Below, piece by piece: positions 46,504 to 54,621 of a stretch of 64,000 nucleotides of DNA (its first letter is position 1; each line of letters opens with the position of its first letter). A program made the translations under genes and the position numbers. Origin of the DNA: Clostridia bacterium (GTDB taxonomy: Bacteria > Bacillota > Clostridia > TANB77 > UBA1234); NCBI GenBank assembly GCA_017522765.1, contig JAFWYG010000005.1, forward strand, positions 138,826 to 202,825. Direction: 5' to 3'. A model generated the notes under the pieces. That model was not told where the DNA came from. It worked only from the letters and a program-made list of their open reading frames with translations, and made no database searches.

Positions 46504-47259
46504 ATGAACAAAAAGAAAATAGGTATAATTGTTATATTGATTATTTGTGCAATTGTTGTAACAAACCAGTTGTTAAGCAAAGGCCCAGAAGAAATTTTAA
46601 ATTCAGAAGACAATTTGCACAATTCGGGTGATACTTCGACACAAAAAGATTTGGAACAATTAAATGTAATTTTGAACAATAAAGAATTGTGGTATAAAGA
46701 TGATGAGTTTGACCAATATAGTTATGCTGTTACAGATTTAGATCAAAATGGAAGATTAGAAATTATATCATCTATTTGTCAAGGGACAGGGTTATATACA
46801 TATACTACTATTTATGAAGTAAATGAAACTTTAGAGGAGTTAAATTTATGTGAGAGTAATTTGGAAGAATATGATTCACAAGCCGACATTATAAAGAAGA
46901 ACTGGATAGTATTTTATGATAAATATACAGAAAAATATTATTATGTATTAGAAGATGTGACTAGAAATGGAATGGCAGAACTTTATGAAAATAAAAGATA
47001 TTTTTGCTTATTTAATGGTGAAAGTGTTGAGGAATATTTAGTAAGAAAAAGTACTATATATCAAAATGGGATACCTGAAATTACCTTCACTGATGTGAAT
47101 GATAATATAATAAATGAAGAGGAGTACAATAAGTTTGAAAATAAATATTTTAACAGCTTTGAAAAAATGATGGTAAATATAGAATGGTTAAGTGGTTTTA
47201 CTGACATAAGTATTACCGAATTGGAAATTTCTTATAGAAATTTTAACTTAACTAAATAG
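46504..47259 (+). CDS. Membrane-anchored hypothetical protein
   Basis: SD gagggaaaag upstream; N-terminal TM helix MNKKKIGIIVILIICAIVVT; no recognisable motif. Confidence 0.5.
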   Translation: MNKKKIGIIVILIICAIVVTNQLLSKGPEEILNSEDNLHNSGDTSTQKDLEQLNVILNNKELWYKDDEFDQYSYAVTDLDQNGRLEIISSICQGTGLYTYTTIYEVNETLEELNLCESNLEEYDSQADIIKKNWIVFYDKYTEKYYYVLEDVTRNGMAELYENKRYFCLFNGESVEEYLVRKSTIYQNGIPEITFTDVNDNIINEEEYNKFENKYFNSFEKMMVNIEWLSGFTDISITELEISYRNFNLTK

Positions 47260-47415
47260 TTAAGAGATATATAAACGTGCTGAATTGGAATTTTTCCATC
47301 TTAGCACGTTGTTTTTTGTATAAATTGTTGCTTTTTGAAAATAGGTGTGGTAAAATGCGTTCATTCGTGTTTCGCGGATAAAGCTATAACTTATATAAGT
47401 GGAGGTGTTTTAGAA

Positions 47416-49667
47416 ATGAACATTACACACGACGATGAGATTGCTGAAAGAAAAAAATTAGAAAAAACAACACGTTTTATCGATCAAGAAATCAAAGAAA
47501 GTGAAGAAAGACTTGAAAGAGGCTTTGATGACTACAACTTTGATGATGATTATCAAGACGACTTTATGAAGGCAGCCCTTAAAGAAAAGTTTAACCAAAG
47601 AATTAAGAATTTAAAAATGGTTAGACGGAAAGCCATACTTTGCAAGAGTAGATTTTGTAGAAGATGGAAGTTCGACAAGGGATGCCTTTTATTTGCGGAA
47701 AAGTAATGGTCACTGACCATGATACTTTAGAGCAAATAGTTATTGACTGGAGAGCTCCGATTGCAGATTTGTATTACGAGGGACGTCTTGGTGAAGCTTC
47801 ATACGTTTGCCCTGGTGGTGAGATTAAGGGTGACATCAAATTAAAGAGACAATATTTCTTTGATGATGACGGACTGAAAGATGTGATGGATATTGATATC
47901 ACAACAAACGATGAAATGCTTCAGCCATTCCTTTCTGCAAATTCGGACACAAGACTAAAAAATATTATTTCAACAATTCAAGCAGAACAAAACAAAATTA
48001 TAAGATCCGATATGTGGCAACCACTTGTTGTACAAGGAGTTGCTGGTTCTGGTAAGACAACTATTGCGTTGCATAGAATTGCATATCTAATTTATAATTA
48101 TGACAAAAACTTTTTTCCAGAAGAATTTTTAATCATAGCACCTAATAAATTTTTCCTAAACTATATTTCAAACGTATTGCCAGACCTGGGTGTTGATAGG
48201 GTTGGACAAAGCACATATGAAGACATTGCATTTGAAGTAATAGGTAGTACATTTGAAATTGAAGAACCAAATGAAAAACTAGCAAGACTTATTAATAATT
48301 CAAAATCTGAGAAAGAAACTGAAATTTGCAAGAACATAGAAGAAGCTTCTATTTTTAAATCATCAATTAGATATAAAAATGTATTAGATGATTATTTGTA
48401 CGAAGTAGAGAAAAGAGTTTTACCTGATGAGGATTTTAAAATAGACAGATATATTTTTATGACAAAGAAAGATATTGCACATCTGTATTATAGAGAATAT
48501 GGTAATCTACCAATATGCAGACGTATTGAAGAAATATCTAAGCATATGAAGAATCAAGTAATGCTTAAAAATGGTGATATCTTAAATGATATTGAAGAAG
48601 AACGTAATTATAAAGTTGCAAAAATAAAACAAGAGGAACCAATAGAAGAAATAAGACTTGAACTTATTAGACAAGAATATGCTGAAGCAGAGAAAAAGAA
48701 AAACACAGTTACTAAAGACGTGAAGAAACATATTCAAAAGTATTTCTCTAATTTCAAAGTTTTAGAACCAATTAAATATTACAGAGAATTTATGGATCAC
48801 TACCTAGAACAATTTGCTGAAGGTAGAATTCCAAAGGAACAAATAAAATATATTAAATCTTCTTTTGAAGCTTCACAAAGAAAAGGCAAAATTGAAATGG
48901 AAGATATTGCTCCACTAATGTACATTAAATATAGAGTACATGGAGTAAAAACAAAGTTTGCACTTAAACATATAGTAATAGACGAAGCACAAGATTTTAG
49001 TGAATTCCAATTCTTTATATTTAAAAAGATTATAAATAGCAATTCGCTTACAATACTCGGAGATTTAGCACAAGGTATTTACTATTATAGAGGAACTCAA
49101 AACTGGCAAAAGACAATGAACATGGTTTTTGGAATAGACAATGAACCACAATATTTAACATTAAAGAAAACATACAGAACTACAGAAGAAATTATGAATG
49201 TGGCAAACCATGTTATAACAAACGTTATTGAAAAAATTAATTGCTCGCTTGGTGAACCTGTAATGAAGAGCGGTGAACCAGTTACAATAAAAGGTTTTGA
49301 AACTGAAAAAGATATGCTTGATCAAATTAAAAATAGAATTACAGAATTAAAAAATAGAGGTATGAAAAACATCGCACTTATATGCAAGACAGTTCCTGAT
49401 TGTCAAAAGCTTGCCGGACAACTAAGCGATTACGATAATATTCATATAATTACGGATAAAGATGCAGAATATAATGGTGGAGTAAGTATAGTACCGTCAT
49501 ATTTATCAAAAGGTCTTGAATTTGATGCGGTAATTATTACGAACGCAGATATATACAACTACACCAAATCAGAAGTTGATACAAAATTATTATATGTTTG
49601 TATAACAAGAGCGATGAATACATTAGATATTTACTATGTGAATGAATTGACAAAACTATTGGATTAA
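47416..49667 (+). pseudogene. helD: HelD-like (DNA helicase IV / UvrD-family) gene split by two closely spaced +1 frameshifts
   Basis: In frame 1, MNITHDDEIAERKKLEK...QRIKNLKMVR follows SD ggaggtg. Frame 2 continues from 47618 to a stop at 47714-47716 with the conserved block GKPYFARVDFVEDGS..AFYL (compare B. subtilis HelD SPYFGRFDFIENGE...VYIGL). Frame 3 then carries GKVMVTDHDTLEQIVIDWRAPIADLYY, Walker A GVAGSGKTT and the rest of the helicase through 49667. The extra bases are C at 47626 (aga-c-gga) and C at 47696 (ttg-c-gga). Confidence 0.75.
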
Positions 49668-50664: not shown

Positions 50665-50711
50665 AAAGAGATGTCCAAAGAAGGTTGTCCCTTTTGGACG
50701 ATTTAGGAAAT

Positions 50712-50745
50712 AAAAAAAGAACTCGATTATTTGAGTTCTTTTTCT
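50712..50745. terminator. Bidirectional terminator (A7-hairpin-T5) downstream of rpmB (minus) and the sORF pair (plus)
   Basis: aaaaaaa-gaactc-gattatt-tgagttc-ttttt. Confidence 0.75.
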
Positions 50746-50748
50746 ATA

Positions 50749-50934
50749 CTATGCTCTTTCAACTTTTCCAGATCTTAAACATCTTGAACATACTGTCATT
50801 TTTTTAGATGTACCATTAACAACAGCTTTAACAGTTCTTAGATTTGGTTTAAAAGTTCTAGCAGATCTTCTATGTGAGTGACTTACTTGGTTTAAGAACA
50901 CTACTTCTTTTTCGCAAATTTCGCATTTTGCCAT
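50749..50934 (-). CDS. rpmB: 50S ribosomal protein L28
   Basis: MAKCEICEKEVVFLNQVSHSHRRSARTFKPNLRTVKAVVNGTSKKMTVCSRCLRSGKV. The start was moved to the internal ATG at 50934, with SD ggaggtg. The promoter ttgtca-17-taaaat lies upstream on the minus strand. Confidence 0.9.
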   Translation of the reverse strand: MAKCEICEKEVVFLNQVSHSHRRSARTFKPNLRTVKAVVNGTSKKMTVCSRCLRSGKVERA

Positions 50935-51145
50935 TTCTAGCACCTCCTTAAGGTTTTCTAAAATCATTCTTCGATATTTTAACACAAATAATAAGCTTTG
51001 ACAACAATTTTTACAATTTATTGAAGTCAAAACACACTAATTGGAATATACTGTAAATTACTCTCTTACGTGCACGACTAGTTTATGACTTTTAATAAGT
51101 TTTGTCAATCAAAAAAGCAATATTTAAGCATTATTTCTAAGCTTT

Positions 51146-52402
51146 TTAGATAATAGCCAAGAGTTCACCAGACCATTTTTGATACTTTTCTGGTTCGTCT
51201 CTAAAATATTCCTTTAAAAGCGGGACAACACTGTATTTTACAAGCATTTTGATTTCTGCATCTGGCATAGGTTTACAAAAATATGAATGTCCGATTTGTC
51301 TGCTTTCATCTAATTCTTTATTAATTTCTTCTATTTTTTCAATAATTGAAGTTAGGAGTGGGTTTTGCAAGTAAAACTCTTTAAATTTAGAATTGTCAAA
51401 AACTGGATTTATCGTATAGAAGCAGAATCTTCTTCTTAAAGCATAATCGGATAGGGCTAAATCTTCATCATATGTGTTCATAGTACCTATAATGTATAAA
51501 TTATCAGGCACATAGAATCTTTCTCTAGAACAAGAAAGTTCGATATAATTTTCTTTGCCACGTTTATCAATTTCAATAAGAGAGAAGGCTTCTCCAAATA
51601 TTTTTGGAATGTTTCCACGATTTATTTCGTCAATAATTACGAAGAATTTTTTGTCTGGATTATTTCTAGCTTTATTACAAATTCTCTTAAAACAACCAGT
51701 TTTATACTTGTATATACCTATATCATCTGGGCGATATCCTTCAATGAATTCATCATTTGAATACATTTCATGAAATTGTATGTTAAGCATTTGTTCATCG
51801 TCTTTTGAACCAATTATTGAAAATGCCATACGTCTTGCTATATATGTTTTACCAACTCCTGGTGCGCCTTGTAAGACTACATTTTTACGGGCTAATATTA
51901 AATCTCGAAGTTCATCATAATCTTTTTCATCAAAATAAACTTCCTTTAAGAATTCTTCCTTGTTGTAATTGTCATATAGTTGGTATTTTCTCTTAGGATT
52001 TAATTCTCTAAGCATACTGTAGATAACTTCAAATTCGCGTTTTGAAAGTTTAAATAAAGTTCCTTGCATATATCTAAAAACTTCAAGATTTGCAAGTTCT
52101 ATATGTGTTTCCATACTATATCTAGTAACAGGATCGGTAAGACCTTCAATCTTTTTTAGCATGATGTGTTCTTTATCAAGTTCTTGCACACAAACGCAAA
52201 TACCTAAGATTTGATTACTAGGTTCATTTTCGTAGGCAATTACAATTTCTCCAACTTTTATTTCAGCAAAGTTTTTATATAAGGTTCTTAAAGTACCTTG
52301 CTCTGTCATGCAAGAATAGAAAAAGTAGTCGTTTATATCTAATTCTCTAAATTTTATCATTTTTGGATTGATGCTAAGCCACCAATAATTTTTAGTTTCC
52401 AT
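51146..52402 (-). CDS. McrB-like AAA+ GTPase with N-terminal EVE/PUA-like domain; no McrC partner adjacent
   Basis: The N-terminal ~150 aa (YWWLSINPKM...EIVIAYENEP...ILGICVCVQ) looks EVE/PUA-like. The P-loop is VVLQGAPGVGKTYIARR, Walker B is FFVIIDEINRGN, the McrB signature is IIGTMNTYDEDLALSDYALRRRF (NxxD plus the RRRF arginine finger). Confidence 0.7.
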   Translation of the reverse strand: METKNYWWLSINPKMIKFRELDINDYFFYSCMTEQGTLRTLYKNFAEIKVGEIVIAYENEPSNQILGICVCVQELDKEHIMLKKIEGLTDPVTRYSMETHIELANLEVFRYMQGTLFKLSKREFEVIYSMLRELNPKRKYQLYDNYNKEEFLKEVYFDEKDYDELRDLILARKNVVLQGAPGVGKTYIARRMAFSIIGSKDDEQMLNIQFHEMYSNDEFIEGYRPDDIGIYKYKTGCFKRICNKARNNPDKKFFVIIDEINRGNIPKIFGEAFSLIEIDKRGKENYIELSCSRERFYVPDNLYIIGTMNTYDEDLALSDYALRRRFCFYTINPVFDNSKFKEFYLQNPLLTSIIEKIEEINKELDESRQIGHSYFCKPMPDAEIKMLVKYSVVPLLKEYFRDEPEKYQKWSGELLAII

Positions 52403-52572
52403 ATCAAATAGTGAAATCTAAATTTCACGTCCTCCTTTCGGATGAATTGCACGCATATATTATCACGAATTACCGTAAACTTCAAACATATTTGTAAATT
52501 CGTTGACTGAGAACAAAGGTTTGTGATAATCTAAATATCGGAAAGAAAATCAGCGCTTGGGGAGGTGAATAT

Positions 52573-54621
52573 ATGGCAGATTTAGATATGAGTTTACAAT
52601 TTCTAAAAGGTGTTGGACCGGCGAGATATGAAATACTACAAAAGCTAGGTTTAAACACAGTTGAAGATATATTAAATTATTTTCCTAGAGATTATGAAGA
52701 TAGAGGTAATTATAAAAAAATATGTGAATTAATAGATGGTGAAACTACGGCTATTAAAGCAATTGTCAAAACTAATGTTTCAGAACAAAGGATTAGACGT
52801 AATATGGCAATATACAAGGTGATAGCTGAAGATGGAACGGGCAATATCATTCTTACGTGGTTTAATCAGCCATATATTAAGAAACAACTATGTGTCGGCG
52901 AAGAGTATTCTTTTTATGGCAAAGTAAAAAATACGCTAGGAAGAATCGAAATACAATCTCCTGTATTTGAAAAGGCAGAGGCTTCAAAAAACACAGGAAA
53001 GATAATCCCTATATATCCACTAACAGCTGGCATAACACAAAACGTATTTCGTGGAATTGTAGAGCTTGCTGTAAAGTCATCGCTAGAAGAAGTACAGGAA
53101 TCGATGCCAAATTGGATTCTTGATAAATATAGATTACCAAGTTTTAAATGGGCAATGCAGAATATACATTTCCCTGAAAAATTAGAAGATTTTGAAAAGG
53201 CTCGTAAGAGAATTGCTTTTGATGAATTATTGACAATGCAACTTGCGTTATTAAGATTTAAAGAAAAAGGAAATGAAGACAGAGACGGAATATCTTTTTC
53301 TATTGATGAAAATGTAGATGAATTATTAAATACATTACCATATAAATTAACAAACGCACAGATGCGAGTTTGGAAAGAAATTGATAAAGACATGCGTAGT
53401 TCTAAATCAATGAATAGACTTGTGCAAGGCGATGTAGGTTCTGGTAAAACTGCAGTAGCTACGTTGGCTATGTTTAAAGCTGTGAAAAATGGTTACCAAG
53501 CGGCCATGATGGCGCCGACAGCAATACTTGCTAGACAACATTATGAAGGTATTAGTAAGATGCTAGCGCCATTTAATATGAATGTAGAATTATTAACTAG
53601 TGATATAACAAAGAAAAACAAAGCCTTGGTTTTAGAAAGATTAAAAAATGGTGAAATAGATATTTTGATTGGAACGCATGCTTTGTTAGAGGAAAATGTT
53701 GAGTTTAAAAATGCAGGATTAGTTATTACTGACGAACAGCATCGTTTTGGTGTTAGACAAAGAAGTGTGCTTTCTGCAAAAGGAAATTTAACGGATACTT
53801 TAGTTATGACAGCAACGCCGATACCAAGAACTTTGGCAATTATCTTATATGGCGACTTAGATATTTCTATAATTGATGAACTGCCTCCAGGACGACAAAA
53901 GATTGATACATATGCTGTTAAAAGAAATATGGATGAGCGCATCAATGCTTTTATAAATAAAGAATTAAATGCCGGCAGACAAGCATATATCGTATGCCCA
54001 TTAGTTGAAGAATCTGAACATATGGAAGGTGTTAAATCAGTTGTAGAACAATTTGAGTATTATAAAAAAGTTCTTGCTAATTATAAAGTCGAAATGTTGC
54101 ACGGAAAGATGAAGCCAAAAGATAAAGATGATATCATGCAACGCTTTAAACAAGGCGAGATTAATGCGATAATTTCTACCACTGTAATTGAAGTAGGTGT
54201 GGATGTTCCTAATTCAACACTTATGATTATTGAAAATGCAGAAAGATTTGGACTTGCACAACTTCACCAGCTTAGAGGAAGAGTTGGAAGAGGAAAACAC
54301 AAATCGTATTGCGTTTTAAAATATGAAGGAAATTCAGATATTGTAAAACAACGTATGGAAATAATGCAAAAGAGTAACGATGGGTTTGTTATATCTGAAA
54401 AAGATTTAGAGCTAAGAGGCCCGGGGGAATTTTTTGGAACGAGACAGCATGGTATTCCAGAATTCAGGGTTGCTAATCTGTTTACTGATATTCCTATAAT
54501 GAAGGTTGCGCAAGAAATTGCTAATCGAATTATTGAGGAGGATCCAAGATTGGAAAAACCAGAAAATACCATTTTGTTGAACGGTATAAATAAACTTTTT
54601 GAAGAAAAAATTTCTATATAA
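52573..54621 (+). CDS. recG: ATP-dependent DNA helicase RecG
   Basis: N-terminal wedge domain; helicase motifs GDVGSGKT, DEQHRFG, TATPIPRT and the TRG motif region. Confidence 0.9.
   Translation: MADLDMSLQFLKGVGPARYEILQKLGLNTVEDILNYFPRDYEDRGNYKKICELIDGETTAIKAIVKTNVSEQRIRRNMAIYKVIAEDGTGNIILTWFNQPYIKKQLCVGEEYSFYGKVKNTLGRIEIQSPVFEKAEASKNTGKIIPIYPLTAGITQNVFRGIVELAVKSSLEEVQESMPNWILDKYRLPSFKWAMQNIHFPEKLEDFEKARKRIAFDELLTMQLALLRFKEKGNEDRDGISFSIDENVDELLNTLPYKLTNAQMRVWKEIDKDMRSSKSMNRLVQGDVGSGKTAVATLAMFKAVKNGYQAAMMAPTAILARQHYEGISKMLAPFNMNVELLTSDITKKNKALVLERLKNGEIDILIGTHALLEENVEFKNAGLVITDEQHRFGVRQRSVLSAKGNLTDTLVMTATPIPRTLAIILYGDLDISIIDELPPGRQKIDTYAVKRNMDERINAFINKELNAGRQAYIVCPLVEESEHMEGVKSVVEQFEYYKKVLANYKVEMLHGKMKPKDKDDIMQRFKQGEINAIISTTVIEVGVDVPNSTLMIIENAERFGLAQLHQLRGRVGRGKHKSYCVLKYEGNSDIVKQRMEIMQKSNDGFVISEKDLELRGPGEFFGTRQHGIPEFRVANLFTDIPIMKVAQEIANRIIEEDPRLEKPENTILLNGINKLFEEKISI

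Follow-up and report, generated by a model that had tools for sequence, protein, structure and literature searches.

McrB is seen as a GTPase that depends on McrC for its activity and for its biological output. The 64-kb stretch of Clostridia DNA analysed here, called the window throughout, carries a gene for an McrB-type motor joined to an N-terminal EVE domain, and no McrC gene lies beside it. This gene, referred to as the EVE-McrB gene, is an uninterrupted open reading frame (ORF) of 418 amino acids at 51146..52402 on the minus strand, with its stop codon at 51146-51148. A prior interpretation made from the letters of the DNA (the sequence-only reading) had set it at 51146-52440; the lower coordinate holds, but the coding region ends at 52402 and the extra 38 nt are a noncoding 5' leader with a Shine-Dalgarno sequence. 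An identical, complete protein is recorded at NCBI as MBR3888247.1, "AAA family ATPase [Clostridia bacterium]", on a 766-kb contig of a metagenome-assembled genome (MAG). Downstream on the same strand, 208 bp away, lies rpmB for ribosomal protein L28 (50749..50937, minus strand), which has its own promoter-like site and terminator hairpin as judged by profile match and sequence inspection. On the other side, 170 bp away, a profile match identifies the divergent recG (52573..54621, plus strand). Coordinates and profile matches agree with the neighbours that had been named earlier, rpmB and a terminator on one side and divergent recG on the other. Flanks of only 208 bp and 170 bp leave no space for a lost partner, and no frameshifted McrC fragments are found in them. 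The same gene with the same neighbours occurs in at least eight independently assembled contigs from differing samples, so the missing partner gene is not an assembly accident.

Residues 1-137 (51992..52402, minus strand) form an EVE (PUA-like) domain by profile, predicted fold and conservation. Taken alone, the window copy matches the Pfam EVE model (PF01878) with E 0.0064 and 16.9 bits, under the cutoff of 23; among aligned homologous modules the same model matches 20 of 21, with a best E of 5e-12. A profile of the EVE modules retrieves the founding EVE structures 2ar1, 2gbs and 1zce from the PDB (E 1.6e-4 to 1.3e-2). The AlphaFold (AF2) model of residues 1-142 has a predicted local distance difference test score (pLDDT) of 91, and its best Foldseek match in the PDB is 2gbs (E 9e-8, template modelling score 0.77). 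Further EVE matches are 2ar1, 1zce, human THYN1 bound to 5-methylcytosine DNA, the EVE-HNH enzyme VcaM4I and 2eve, and EVE proteins rank above YTH and ASCH domains. Profile and fold thus agree that the N-terminal domain is an EVE domain, as the sequence-only reading had asserted, and not a domain unrelated to EVE. Its core residues W7, W8, P13, Y29, Y57, K84, E107 and F117 are common to the EVE modules of McrC-linked relatives, and the EVE domain of the window protein may still read a modified base.

The remainder of the protein is the McrB-type AAA+ core that had been claimed, with a full catalytic set. In hidden Markov model searches, the McrB model PRK11331 of NCBIfam covers residues 144-415 (E 1e-69, 235 bits), a score that falls under the equivalog cutoff of 637 because the nucleoside triphosphatase (NTPase) half alone matches, and Pfam AAA_5 matches with E 2e-18 and 67 bits, over its cutoff of 22. 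The same residues align end to end with the E. coli McrB chains 6hz4 and 6ut6 (E 4e-71), and the equivalents of E. coli N282, R283, E298, N333, D343 and R348/R349 are present together with Walker A and Walker B. PADLOC, run on the window, gives generic REase_II (McrB-like) matches over the NTPase region and nothing more. The full-length AF2 model (pLDDT 89, predicted template modelling score 0.85) contains the two McrB beta-hairpin inserts and a helical lid, with strands at 221-225 and 231-235, a hairpin region at about 286-297, helices over 338-417 and no coiled-coil segment.

All four motifs quoted in the sequence-only reading are present: GAPGVGKT at 179-186, DEINRGN at 258-264, IIGTMNTYDED at 304-314 and RRRF at 323-326. 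Following the protein from the EVE domain onwards (all coordinates on the minus strand), the linker and pre-AAA+ segment comprises residues 138-172 (51887..51991), placed by alignment with residue roles taken from the literature (PMC7680126, PMC6624300). The guanine-reading loop of this segment aligns with E. coli 165-180, where recognition is through main-chain atoms. Walker A (51845..51868) is invariant in proteins with and without a linked McrC. It is followed by the helix-2-insert beta-hairpin, residues 221-239 (51686..51742), delimited by conservation and the AF2 model, by Walker B with its downstream residues (51611..51631), in which D258, E259, N261 and R262 are invariant, and by the pre-sensor-1 beta-hairpin region, residues 280-297 (51512..51565), where K283, E288, R295 and Y297 are invariant among the McrC-less proteins. 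The consensus (signature) loop L3, MNTYDEDLALSD, covers residues 308-319 (51446..51481) and aligns with E. coli 332-343. The RRRF motif (51425..51436) provides sensor 2 and the arginine finger, equivalent to E. coli R348/R349, and is invariant. The AAA+ small subdomain, or McrB lid, spans residues 336-418 (51149..51397); it is helical in the model, and PF28529 (McrB_lid) is assigned to the identical protein.

The absence of McrC extends far beyond this locus. McrC joins a DUF2357 finger to a PD-(D/E)xK nuclease. A jackhmmer profile built from the McrC of a related locus (L006) was searched against all window ORFs of at least 60 aa and against the context loci of related genes. It matched nothing among these ORFs of the 64-kb window and nothing in 24 of 24 context loci of genes like the window gene, which represent at least five context types. 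For the nearest relatives (35-50% identity), taken from species-representative genomes among the matches listed, the same profile detects McrC directly downstream of mcrB at 78 of 80 loci; McrC is also present in L006. This comparison set came from a scan of genome contigs with the family alignment and holds relatives of at most 45% identity among the matches listed. The earlier claim that no McrC is adjacent is thus borne out, and since McrC abuts mcrB in 78 of 80 loci, unlinked partners are rare in this family.

The McrC-less proteins, referred to here as orphans, form a distinct clade. In the homology search, identity to the window protein is 50-93% for P0001-P0089, whose full-length members have 417-434 aa (86 homologues are full length in this range), and from P0090 on identity is at most 46% and lengths are 436-684 aa. 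The signature motif breaks at the same point, being degenerate in P0001-P0089 and MNTADRSL in all of P0090-P0120. A metagenome scan with the orphan motif DDIGIYKYKxGCFK added 17 further loci, with complete genes of 417-428 aa and McrC in none. Orphans are monophyletic in 200 of 200 neighbour-joining bootstraps of the NTPase and lid alignment. Among 1.84 billion representatives at 50% identity the group collapses to one, P0277, and the other strong matches in that set are either long multi-domain proteins or short ones with an intact MNTADRS loop. The hosts are gut and rumen Clostridia MAGs. Members of the clade were found in none of IMG/VR, the GenBank phages (INPHARED) and the PLSDB plasmids, where the best matches are at most 44% identical. 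None of the papers searched describes this clade, and the McrBC census rested on validated McrB-McrC pairs, with orphans largely set aside. The anatomy of the orphan is clear. To judge from these sequences, the best explanation of its origin is descent from EVE-McrB/McrC type IV restriction systems in which the nuclease subunit was lost once, the orphan being maintained from then on as a unit of one gene.

A residue comparison of 87 orphans with 74 McrC-linked relatives separates what was kept from what changed. Walker A and Walker B, N261, R262, E277 (E. coli E298), N309 (sensor 1), D319 (E. coli D343), R323-R325 and F326 are invariant in both sets, and the pair R262-D319 is the equivalent of the trans pair D343-R283 of E. 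coli. The full catalytic and interface set has been described as sufficient for basal hydrolysis and hexamer-dependent catalysis (Niu et al., Nirwan et al.; PMC7680126, PMC6624300). Loop L3 (E. coli 333-343) is the McrC-contact loop, which is touched by the McrC helical bundle (PMC6624300, PMC7680126). Within it, E. coli D336 receives a hydrogen-bond network from Lys/Arg of McrC, and E. coli R337 (R414 in Thermococcus gammatolerans) bonds McrC main-chain atoms, its mutation raising basal GTPase activity threefold (PMC7680126). In the 74 linked relatives the loop reads MNTADRSLA and is 97-100% fixed. The orphan loop retains N in 100%, T in 58% and D in 82% of the 87 proteins, with F/Y before this D and E/D/K/Q and K/N/E after it. 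Between residues 308 and 319, N309 and D319 are invariant and 310-318 are degenerate. The loop of the window protein, M-N-T-Y-D-E-D, has N309 and D312, and the R and S of MNxxDRS are missing, being replaced by E313 and D314. The signature loop quoted in the sequence-only reading is therefore the McrC-contact loop, itself eroded relative to MNTADRS, a point that had been missed. The Asp retained in 82% of orphans is the equivalent of E. coli D336. Almost no orphan has the Arg equivalent to E. coli R337 and T. gammatolerans R414, the exceptions being a few basal members such as P0075 and P0081.

An entropy scan with a sliding window of 9 columns, for which no region was chosen beforehand, gives the same picture. 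The greatest relaxation in orphans falls at 310-318, with 1.78 bits versus 0.29 in linked relatives, whereas overall column entropy is 0.91 bits in orphans versus 1.33 in linked relatives, meaning that orphans are otherwise the more conserved set. The greatest gains of constraint are at 226-234, the tip of the helix-2 insert, and at 280-295, in the pre-sensor-1 hairpin. The helix-2 insert, where constraint on orphans most exceeds that on linked proteins, acquires the orphan-specific invariants D226, D227, I228, Y231, K232, Y233, C237 and K239; all orphans (100%) have Lys where linked relatives have the aromatic Y239. In the archaeal complex of T. gammatolerans, the McrC finger has its tip cradled by conserved aromatics of this insert (PMC7680126), and the alignment suggests that Y239 is one of these cradling aromatics. 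Ser266, present in 100% of linked relatives, becomes P/A/I/T in orphans and L272 is also lost. In the lid, the W-F-D of linked relatives (400-402) becomes F/Y-K/R-x. A trans-contact ascribed to E. coli "Phe428" could not be mapped onto the alignment, as the residue counted as 428 in the 6ut6 chain is an Ile, and the claim for W-F-D is limited to its loss. Some basal orphans, P0075 and P0081, retain MN(M/I)ADR, and in P0277, the most divergent one, the loop is shortened; it looks as if McrC was lost once and the loop then eroded step by step.

The gene is under purifying selection and has long been resident by vertical descent. Among three syntenic lineages, orphan identity is 80/75/73%, compared with 74/74/76 for RecG and 76/69/68 for DnaG, and the number of nonsynonymous substitutions per site (dN) is 0.16-0.19, with synonymous substitutions (dS) saturated. 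Adjacency to recG is kept in 5 of 5 lineages examined with RecG at least 72% identical, despite a differing far flank. In a relative with 68%-identical RecG (L196, L197, 3241-7046) the site is empty, nth-rpmB standing beside divergent recG at a distance of 186 bp, and a relative with 66%-identical RecG has ftsH-recG instead and no EVE-McrB gene. The empty site and the kept adjacency indicate an old single-gene insertion, so the word "inserted" in the sequence-only reading is supported by comparison of the interval in relatives. Its description of the interval as a common integration neighbourhood is not: there is no integrase or att-like repeat, other sub-lineages use other sites and no other cargo was found at rpmB-recG. 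No tRNA, meaningful flanking direct repeats, GC shift or Rfam element marks the locus as mobile. The suggestion of a remnant of a larger island likewise fails, given the full-length gene, purifying selection, conservation like that of RecG and DnaG and the lack of island genes. Of the two options it had offered, a standalone protein is the better one. McrC is absent in many independent assemblies.

Other sub-lineages of the clade have internally stable chromosomal sites, each with its own context. No shared partner gene emerged across the clade from an all-vs-all BLAST of ORFs within 4 kb at 24 loci, the neighbours being specific to sub-lineages. In one sub-lineage the orphan stands next to a DsbD-thioredoxin pair and near smc. 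In another (L091 4123-4410; L179 1448-1741) yhbY follows within about 70 bp, and within 7 bp in L091; yhbY encodes a CRS1/YhbY RNA-binding domain protein that acts as a ribosome-assembly factor. L091 also has tatD and metG near the orphan, which together with rpmB in the window makes for translation-related neighbours, although inconsistently across the clade. In a further sub-lineage the orphan is always divergent from a small gene of the nucleoside 2-deoxyribosyltransferase family (PF05014; L095 2241-2744, L178 5062-5478, L180 1485-1901, L193 3702-4118). This family also includes DNPH1-type dNMP hydrolases, and a link of the pairing to modified-nucleotide metabolism is possible. The locus L004 (2029-7876), which carries an orphan 68% identical to the window protein (P0062), has a TraG/TrwB-type coupling protein, an SbcCD-like pair of Metallophos and AAA_23 proteins and an unannotated 311-aa ORF. 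Upstream ORFs of about 310 aa in L194 and L004 were considered as a partner and set aside, as they are mutually unrelated and have no Pfam match. The empty-site lineage, from the Hadza human gut, has thyX and clpB-like genes beyond.

Several smaller features accompany the locus. The leader of the EVE-McrB gene (52411..52436, minus strand) has AGGAGG at 52436-52431 followed by a hairpin, GTGAAAT-TTAG-ATTTCAC at 52428-52411, with a perfect 7-bp stem that ends 8 nt before the ATG. This AGGAGG is the sole strong Shine-Dalgarno sequence, about 28 nt upstream of the ATG with the hairpin in between, and relatives have a Shine-Dalgarno sequence at normal spacing without a hairpin, which is confined to the window lineage. 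The leader may be a "split Shine-Dalgarno" joined by folding, or an operator. As a regulatory element the hairpin was rejected, since the fold is no better than that of shuffled sequence (z -1.1) and is absent in relatives. For rpmB, the mechanical ORF at 50749-51030 (minus strand) has a TTG start and 93 aa; the true start is almost certainly the ATG at 50937, which is preceded by GGAGG and gives 61-62 aa as in relatives. The terminator hairpin of rpmB is at 50710-50747 and its extended -10 promoter-like site at 51004-50976. Farther away, a gene for HelD, an RNA polymerase recycling motor, is split into overlapping ORFs in different frames (47335-47706 and 47664-49667, both plus strand). The match is to NCBIfam HelD_BACSU (E 1e-136), the 667-aa ORF covering just model positions 124-771 and the overlapping ORF holding the N-terminal part. 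The same split (653 and 96 aa) is seen in independent contigs with an identical EVE-McrB gene and gene order (L087/L088), and in a related lineage (L001) HelD is split at another place (416 and 276 aa). A frameshift, a pseudogene, recoding or a gene that is truly split would each account for it. An ORF of 251 aa at 46504-47259 (plus strand) has an N-terminal hydrophobic segment and keeps its position in L087/L088; it has no significant match in Pfam, NCBIfam or PADLOC.

The closest known systems are the EVE-McrB/McrC type IV systems of Bacillota and Bacteroidota (Bell et al., 2020, PMC7641849; 2024, PMC11090510), represented here by L006 (P0101) and L007-L086. They share with the window protein an EVE domain directly upstream of the McrB NTPase and lid, 35-46% identity over the full length, the EVE core and all catalytic residues. 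The window clade differs in lacking McrC, in its eroded MNTADRS loop, in the loss of S266, L272 and W400-F401-D402 and in its remodelled hairpins, and at 418 aa the window protein is minimal, whereas most relatives have 550-1100 aa with extra N-terminal domains. Compared with E. coli K-12 McrB (EcoKMcrBC; 6hz4, 6ut6), the NTPase is alike (E 4e-71) and the catalytic equivalents are kept, but the reader is EVE rather than DUF3578, the equivalents of R337/S338 are E313/D314 and no mcrC stands beside the window gene. To our knowledge, PcdA is the only McrC-less McrB relative that has been studied.

Staphylococcus aureus PcdA is an McrB-family protein co-opted for division-plane selection, which shows that McrB can be exapted to a role outside restriction (PMC10602043). 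Like the window gene, it combines EVE with an McrB-family motor, lacks McrC and is fixed in the chromosome of a narrow lineage of Bacillota. The motor of PcdA is largely degenerate: Walker A is degraded, Walker B has no Glu, one Arg finger is lost and the lid is missing, and there are two EVE domains in front of it (PMC10602043). The window protein has one EVE domain and intact Walker A and B, Arg pair and lid. By the published description of PcdA, the window protein is not a member of that family. The R2 proteins of the three-gene McrBC systems LlaI and BsuMI are likewise non-paradigm McrB motors, whose nucleotide use and partner set differ from the E. coli paradigm (bioRxiv 10.64898/2026.08.31.748284). 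They have no fused reader, and a separate R1 and an McrC-like R3 are encoded adjacently. Nucleotide promiscuity is reported for both PcdA (PMC10602043) and the R2 proteins (bioRxiv 10.64898/2026.08.31.748284). The McrB GTPases of the CoCoNuT/NxD branch resemble the orphans in having an altered signature motif and altered relations to McrC, but they have a strictly shortened NxD motif and coiled-coil fusions and keep McrC homologues (PMC11090510). The window clade keeps NxxD spacing (N309...D312) with drifting residues and has neither a coiled coil nor McrC; the window protein is not of the NxD/CoCoNuT branch.

The reading favoured here is that the window protein is an McrC-independent reader-motor co-opted for a cell-intrinsic role without cleavage, in parallel to the exaptation of PcdA; we give this reading slightly less than an even chance. 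A part of a restriction enzyme probably took on a non-cutting job. The co-opted role is favoured because of core-gene-like conservation, neighbourhoods within the core genome and the PcdA precedent. In the proposed mechanism, the EVE beta-barrel would bind a flipped-out modified base in nucleic acid, a ligand suggested by the observed fold and core. Binding of a nucleoside triphosphate (NTP), probably GTP, would build a hexameric ring, as expected from the intact Walker A/B, N261/R262, N309, E277, D319 and R324/R325. Hydrolysis would run on the intrinsic basal machinery without McrC stimulation, given that the McrC-contact loop is eroded and the partner gene is missing. With no McrC finger in the ring, the pore-side hairpins, which are remodelled and under new constraint, could engage another ligand, either nucleic acid or protein, and the output would be mechanical or regulatory, in the form of a clamp, a remodeller or an NTP-gated switch rather than DNA cleavage. 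In a more specific version, McrB was exapted a second time, independently of PcdA, and kept its motor fully active; the protein would read the modified DNA or RNA of its own cell through EVE, an NTP-driven ring with a free, remodelled pore acting on chromosome or RNA transactions. This version is possible but doubtful; the neighbourhoods recG/dnaG, smc and yhbY/metG offer a hint towards it.

A number of observations weigh against a co-opted, non-cutting role. The basic residues K38 and R40 of EVE, which are fixed in McrC-linked relatives, are lost in orphans, so nucleic-acid binding by the EVE module may be altered. The helix-2-insert aromatics are placed on the T. gammatolerans structure by sequence alignment, and the ligand, oligomeric state and nucleotide preference of the window protein are inferred. 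The McrC search covers the window and the locus contexts rather than whole genomes. Relatives whose RecG is 66-68% identical do not carry the gene. Lastly, L004 is an island with features of a type IV secretion system and SbcCD, the only clearly mobile-looking context seen in the clade, and the orphan of L095 lies near Bro-N and helix-turn-helix (HTH) genes.

Some of these points would suit a nuclease-free, single-gene defence against phages or plasmids. Here, EVE would sense modified invader DNA and the McrB ring would clamp or translocate on it, so that replication or transcription is blocked or growth arrest is triggered with no dedicated nuclease. Descent from type IV restriction, the closest relatives being all McrBC, agrees with this explanation, as do the EVE core conserved with restriction-type relatives and the mobile-element-like surroundings of some members. 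Patchy distribution is typical of defence genes, and the orphan is patchy among related lineages, with chromosomal sites that vary by sub-lineage. However, it is conserved to the same degree as RecG and DnaG and is syntenic where RecG differs by about 25%, an unusual pattern for a defence gene. Searches of phage, viral-contig and plasmid collections did not find it, its surroundings in the window hold no cluster of defence genes, and the PADLOC matches are of the generic McrB-like kind. We consider a defence role, the main rival reading, rather unlikely.

If the protein were instead a restriction subunit acting in trans, with an unlinked McrC or a replacement effector elsewhere in the genome, the intact NTPase core and newly constrained pore hairpins would fit a new protein partner. 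The overlap or abutment of McrC and mcrB in 78 of 80 related loci among the matches listed stands against this, as does the finding that no gene family recurs beside the orphan across context types. In addition, the McrC-communicating loop and its Arg are degenerate and still drifting within the clade, which argues against an McrC-type partner, and an in-trans subunit therefore appears improbable. As the orphan has neither an adjacent McrC nor conserved McrC-contact residues, it should not be annotated as a restriction subunit. Least probable by far is a decaying remnant of an McrBC island, or the loss of McrC through an assembly artefact; the eroded signature loop and the MAG source might speak for these. 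Against them, 86 homologues have a complete reading frame of 417-434 aa, the catalytic residues are invariant and dN is low, the contigs with identical gene and context are independent and the short flanks leave no room for a partner. A remnant or artefact is effectively excluded by the intact ORF, its conservation and the independent contigs.

With a co-opted, McrC-independent motor as the preferred reading, the clade has several uses for the study of the family. Since it keeps the catalytic residues and loses the McrC-facing surfaces, it constitutes a natural experiment on the lone McrB ring. The loss of the ADRS part of the loop together with the Tyr-to-Lys change in the helix-2 insert provides an annotation rule for telling McrC-dependent from McrC-independent McrB. 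It might further bring to light how gut and rumen Clostridia, which are abundant, use a modified-base reader for something other than nucleolysis.

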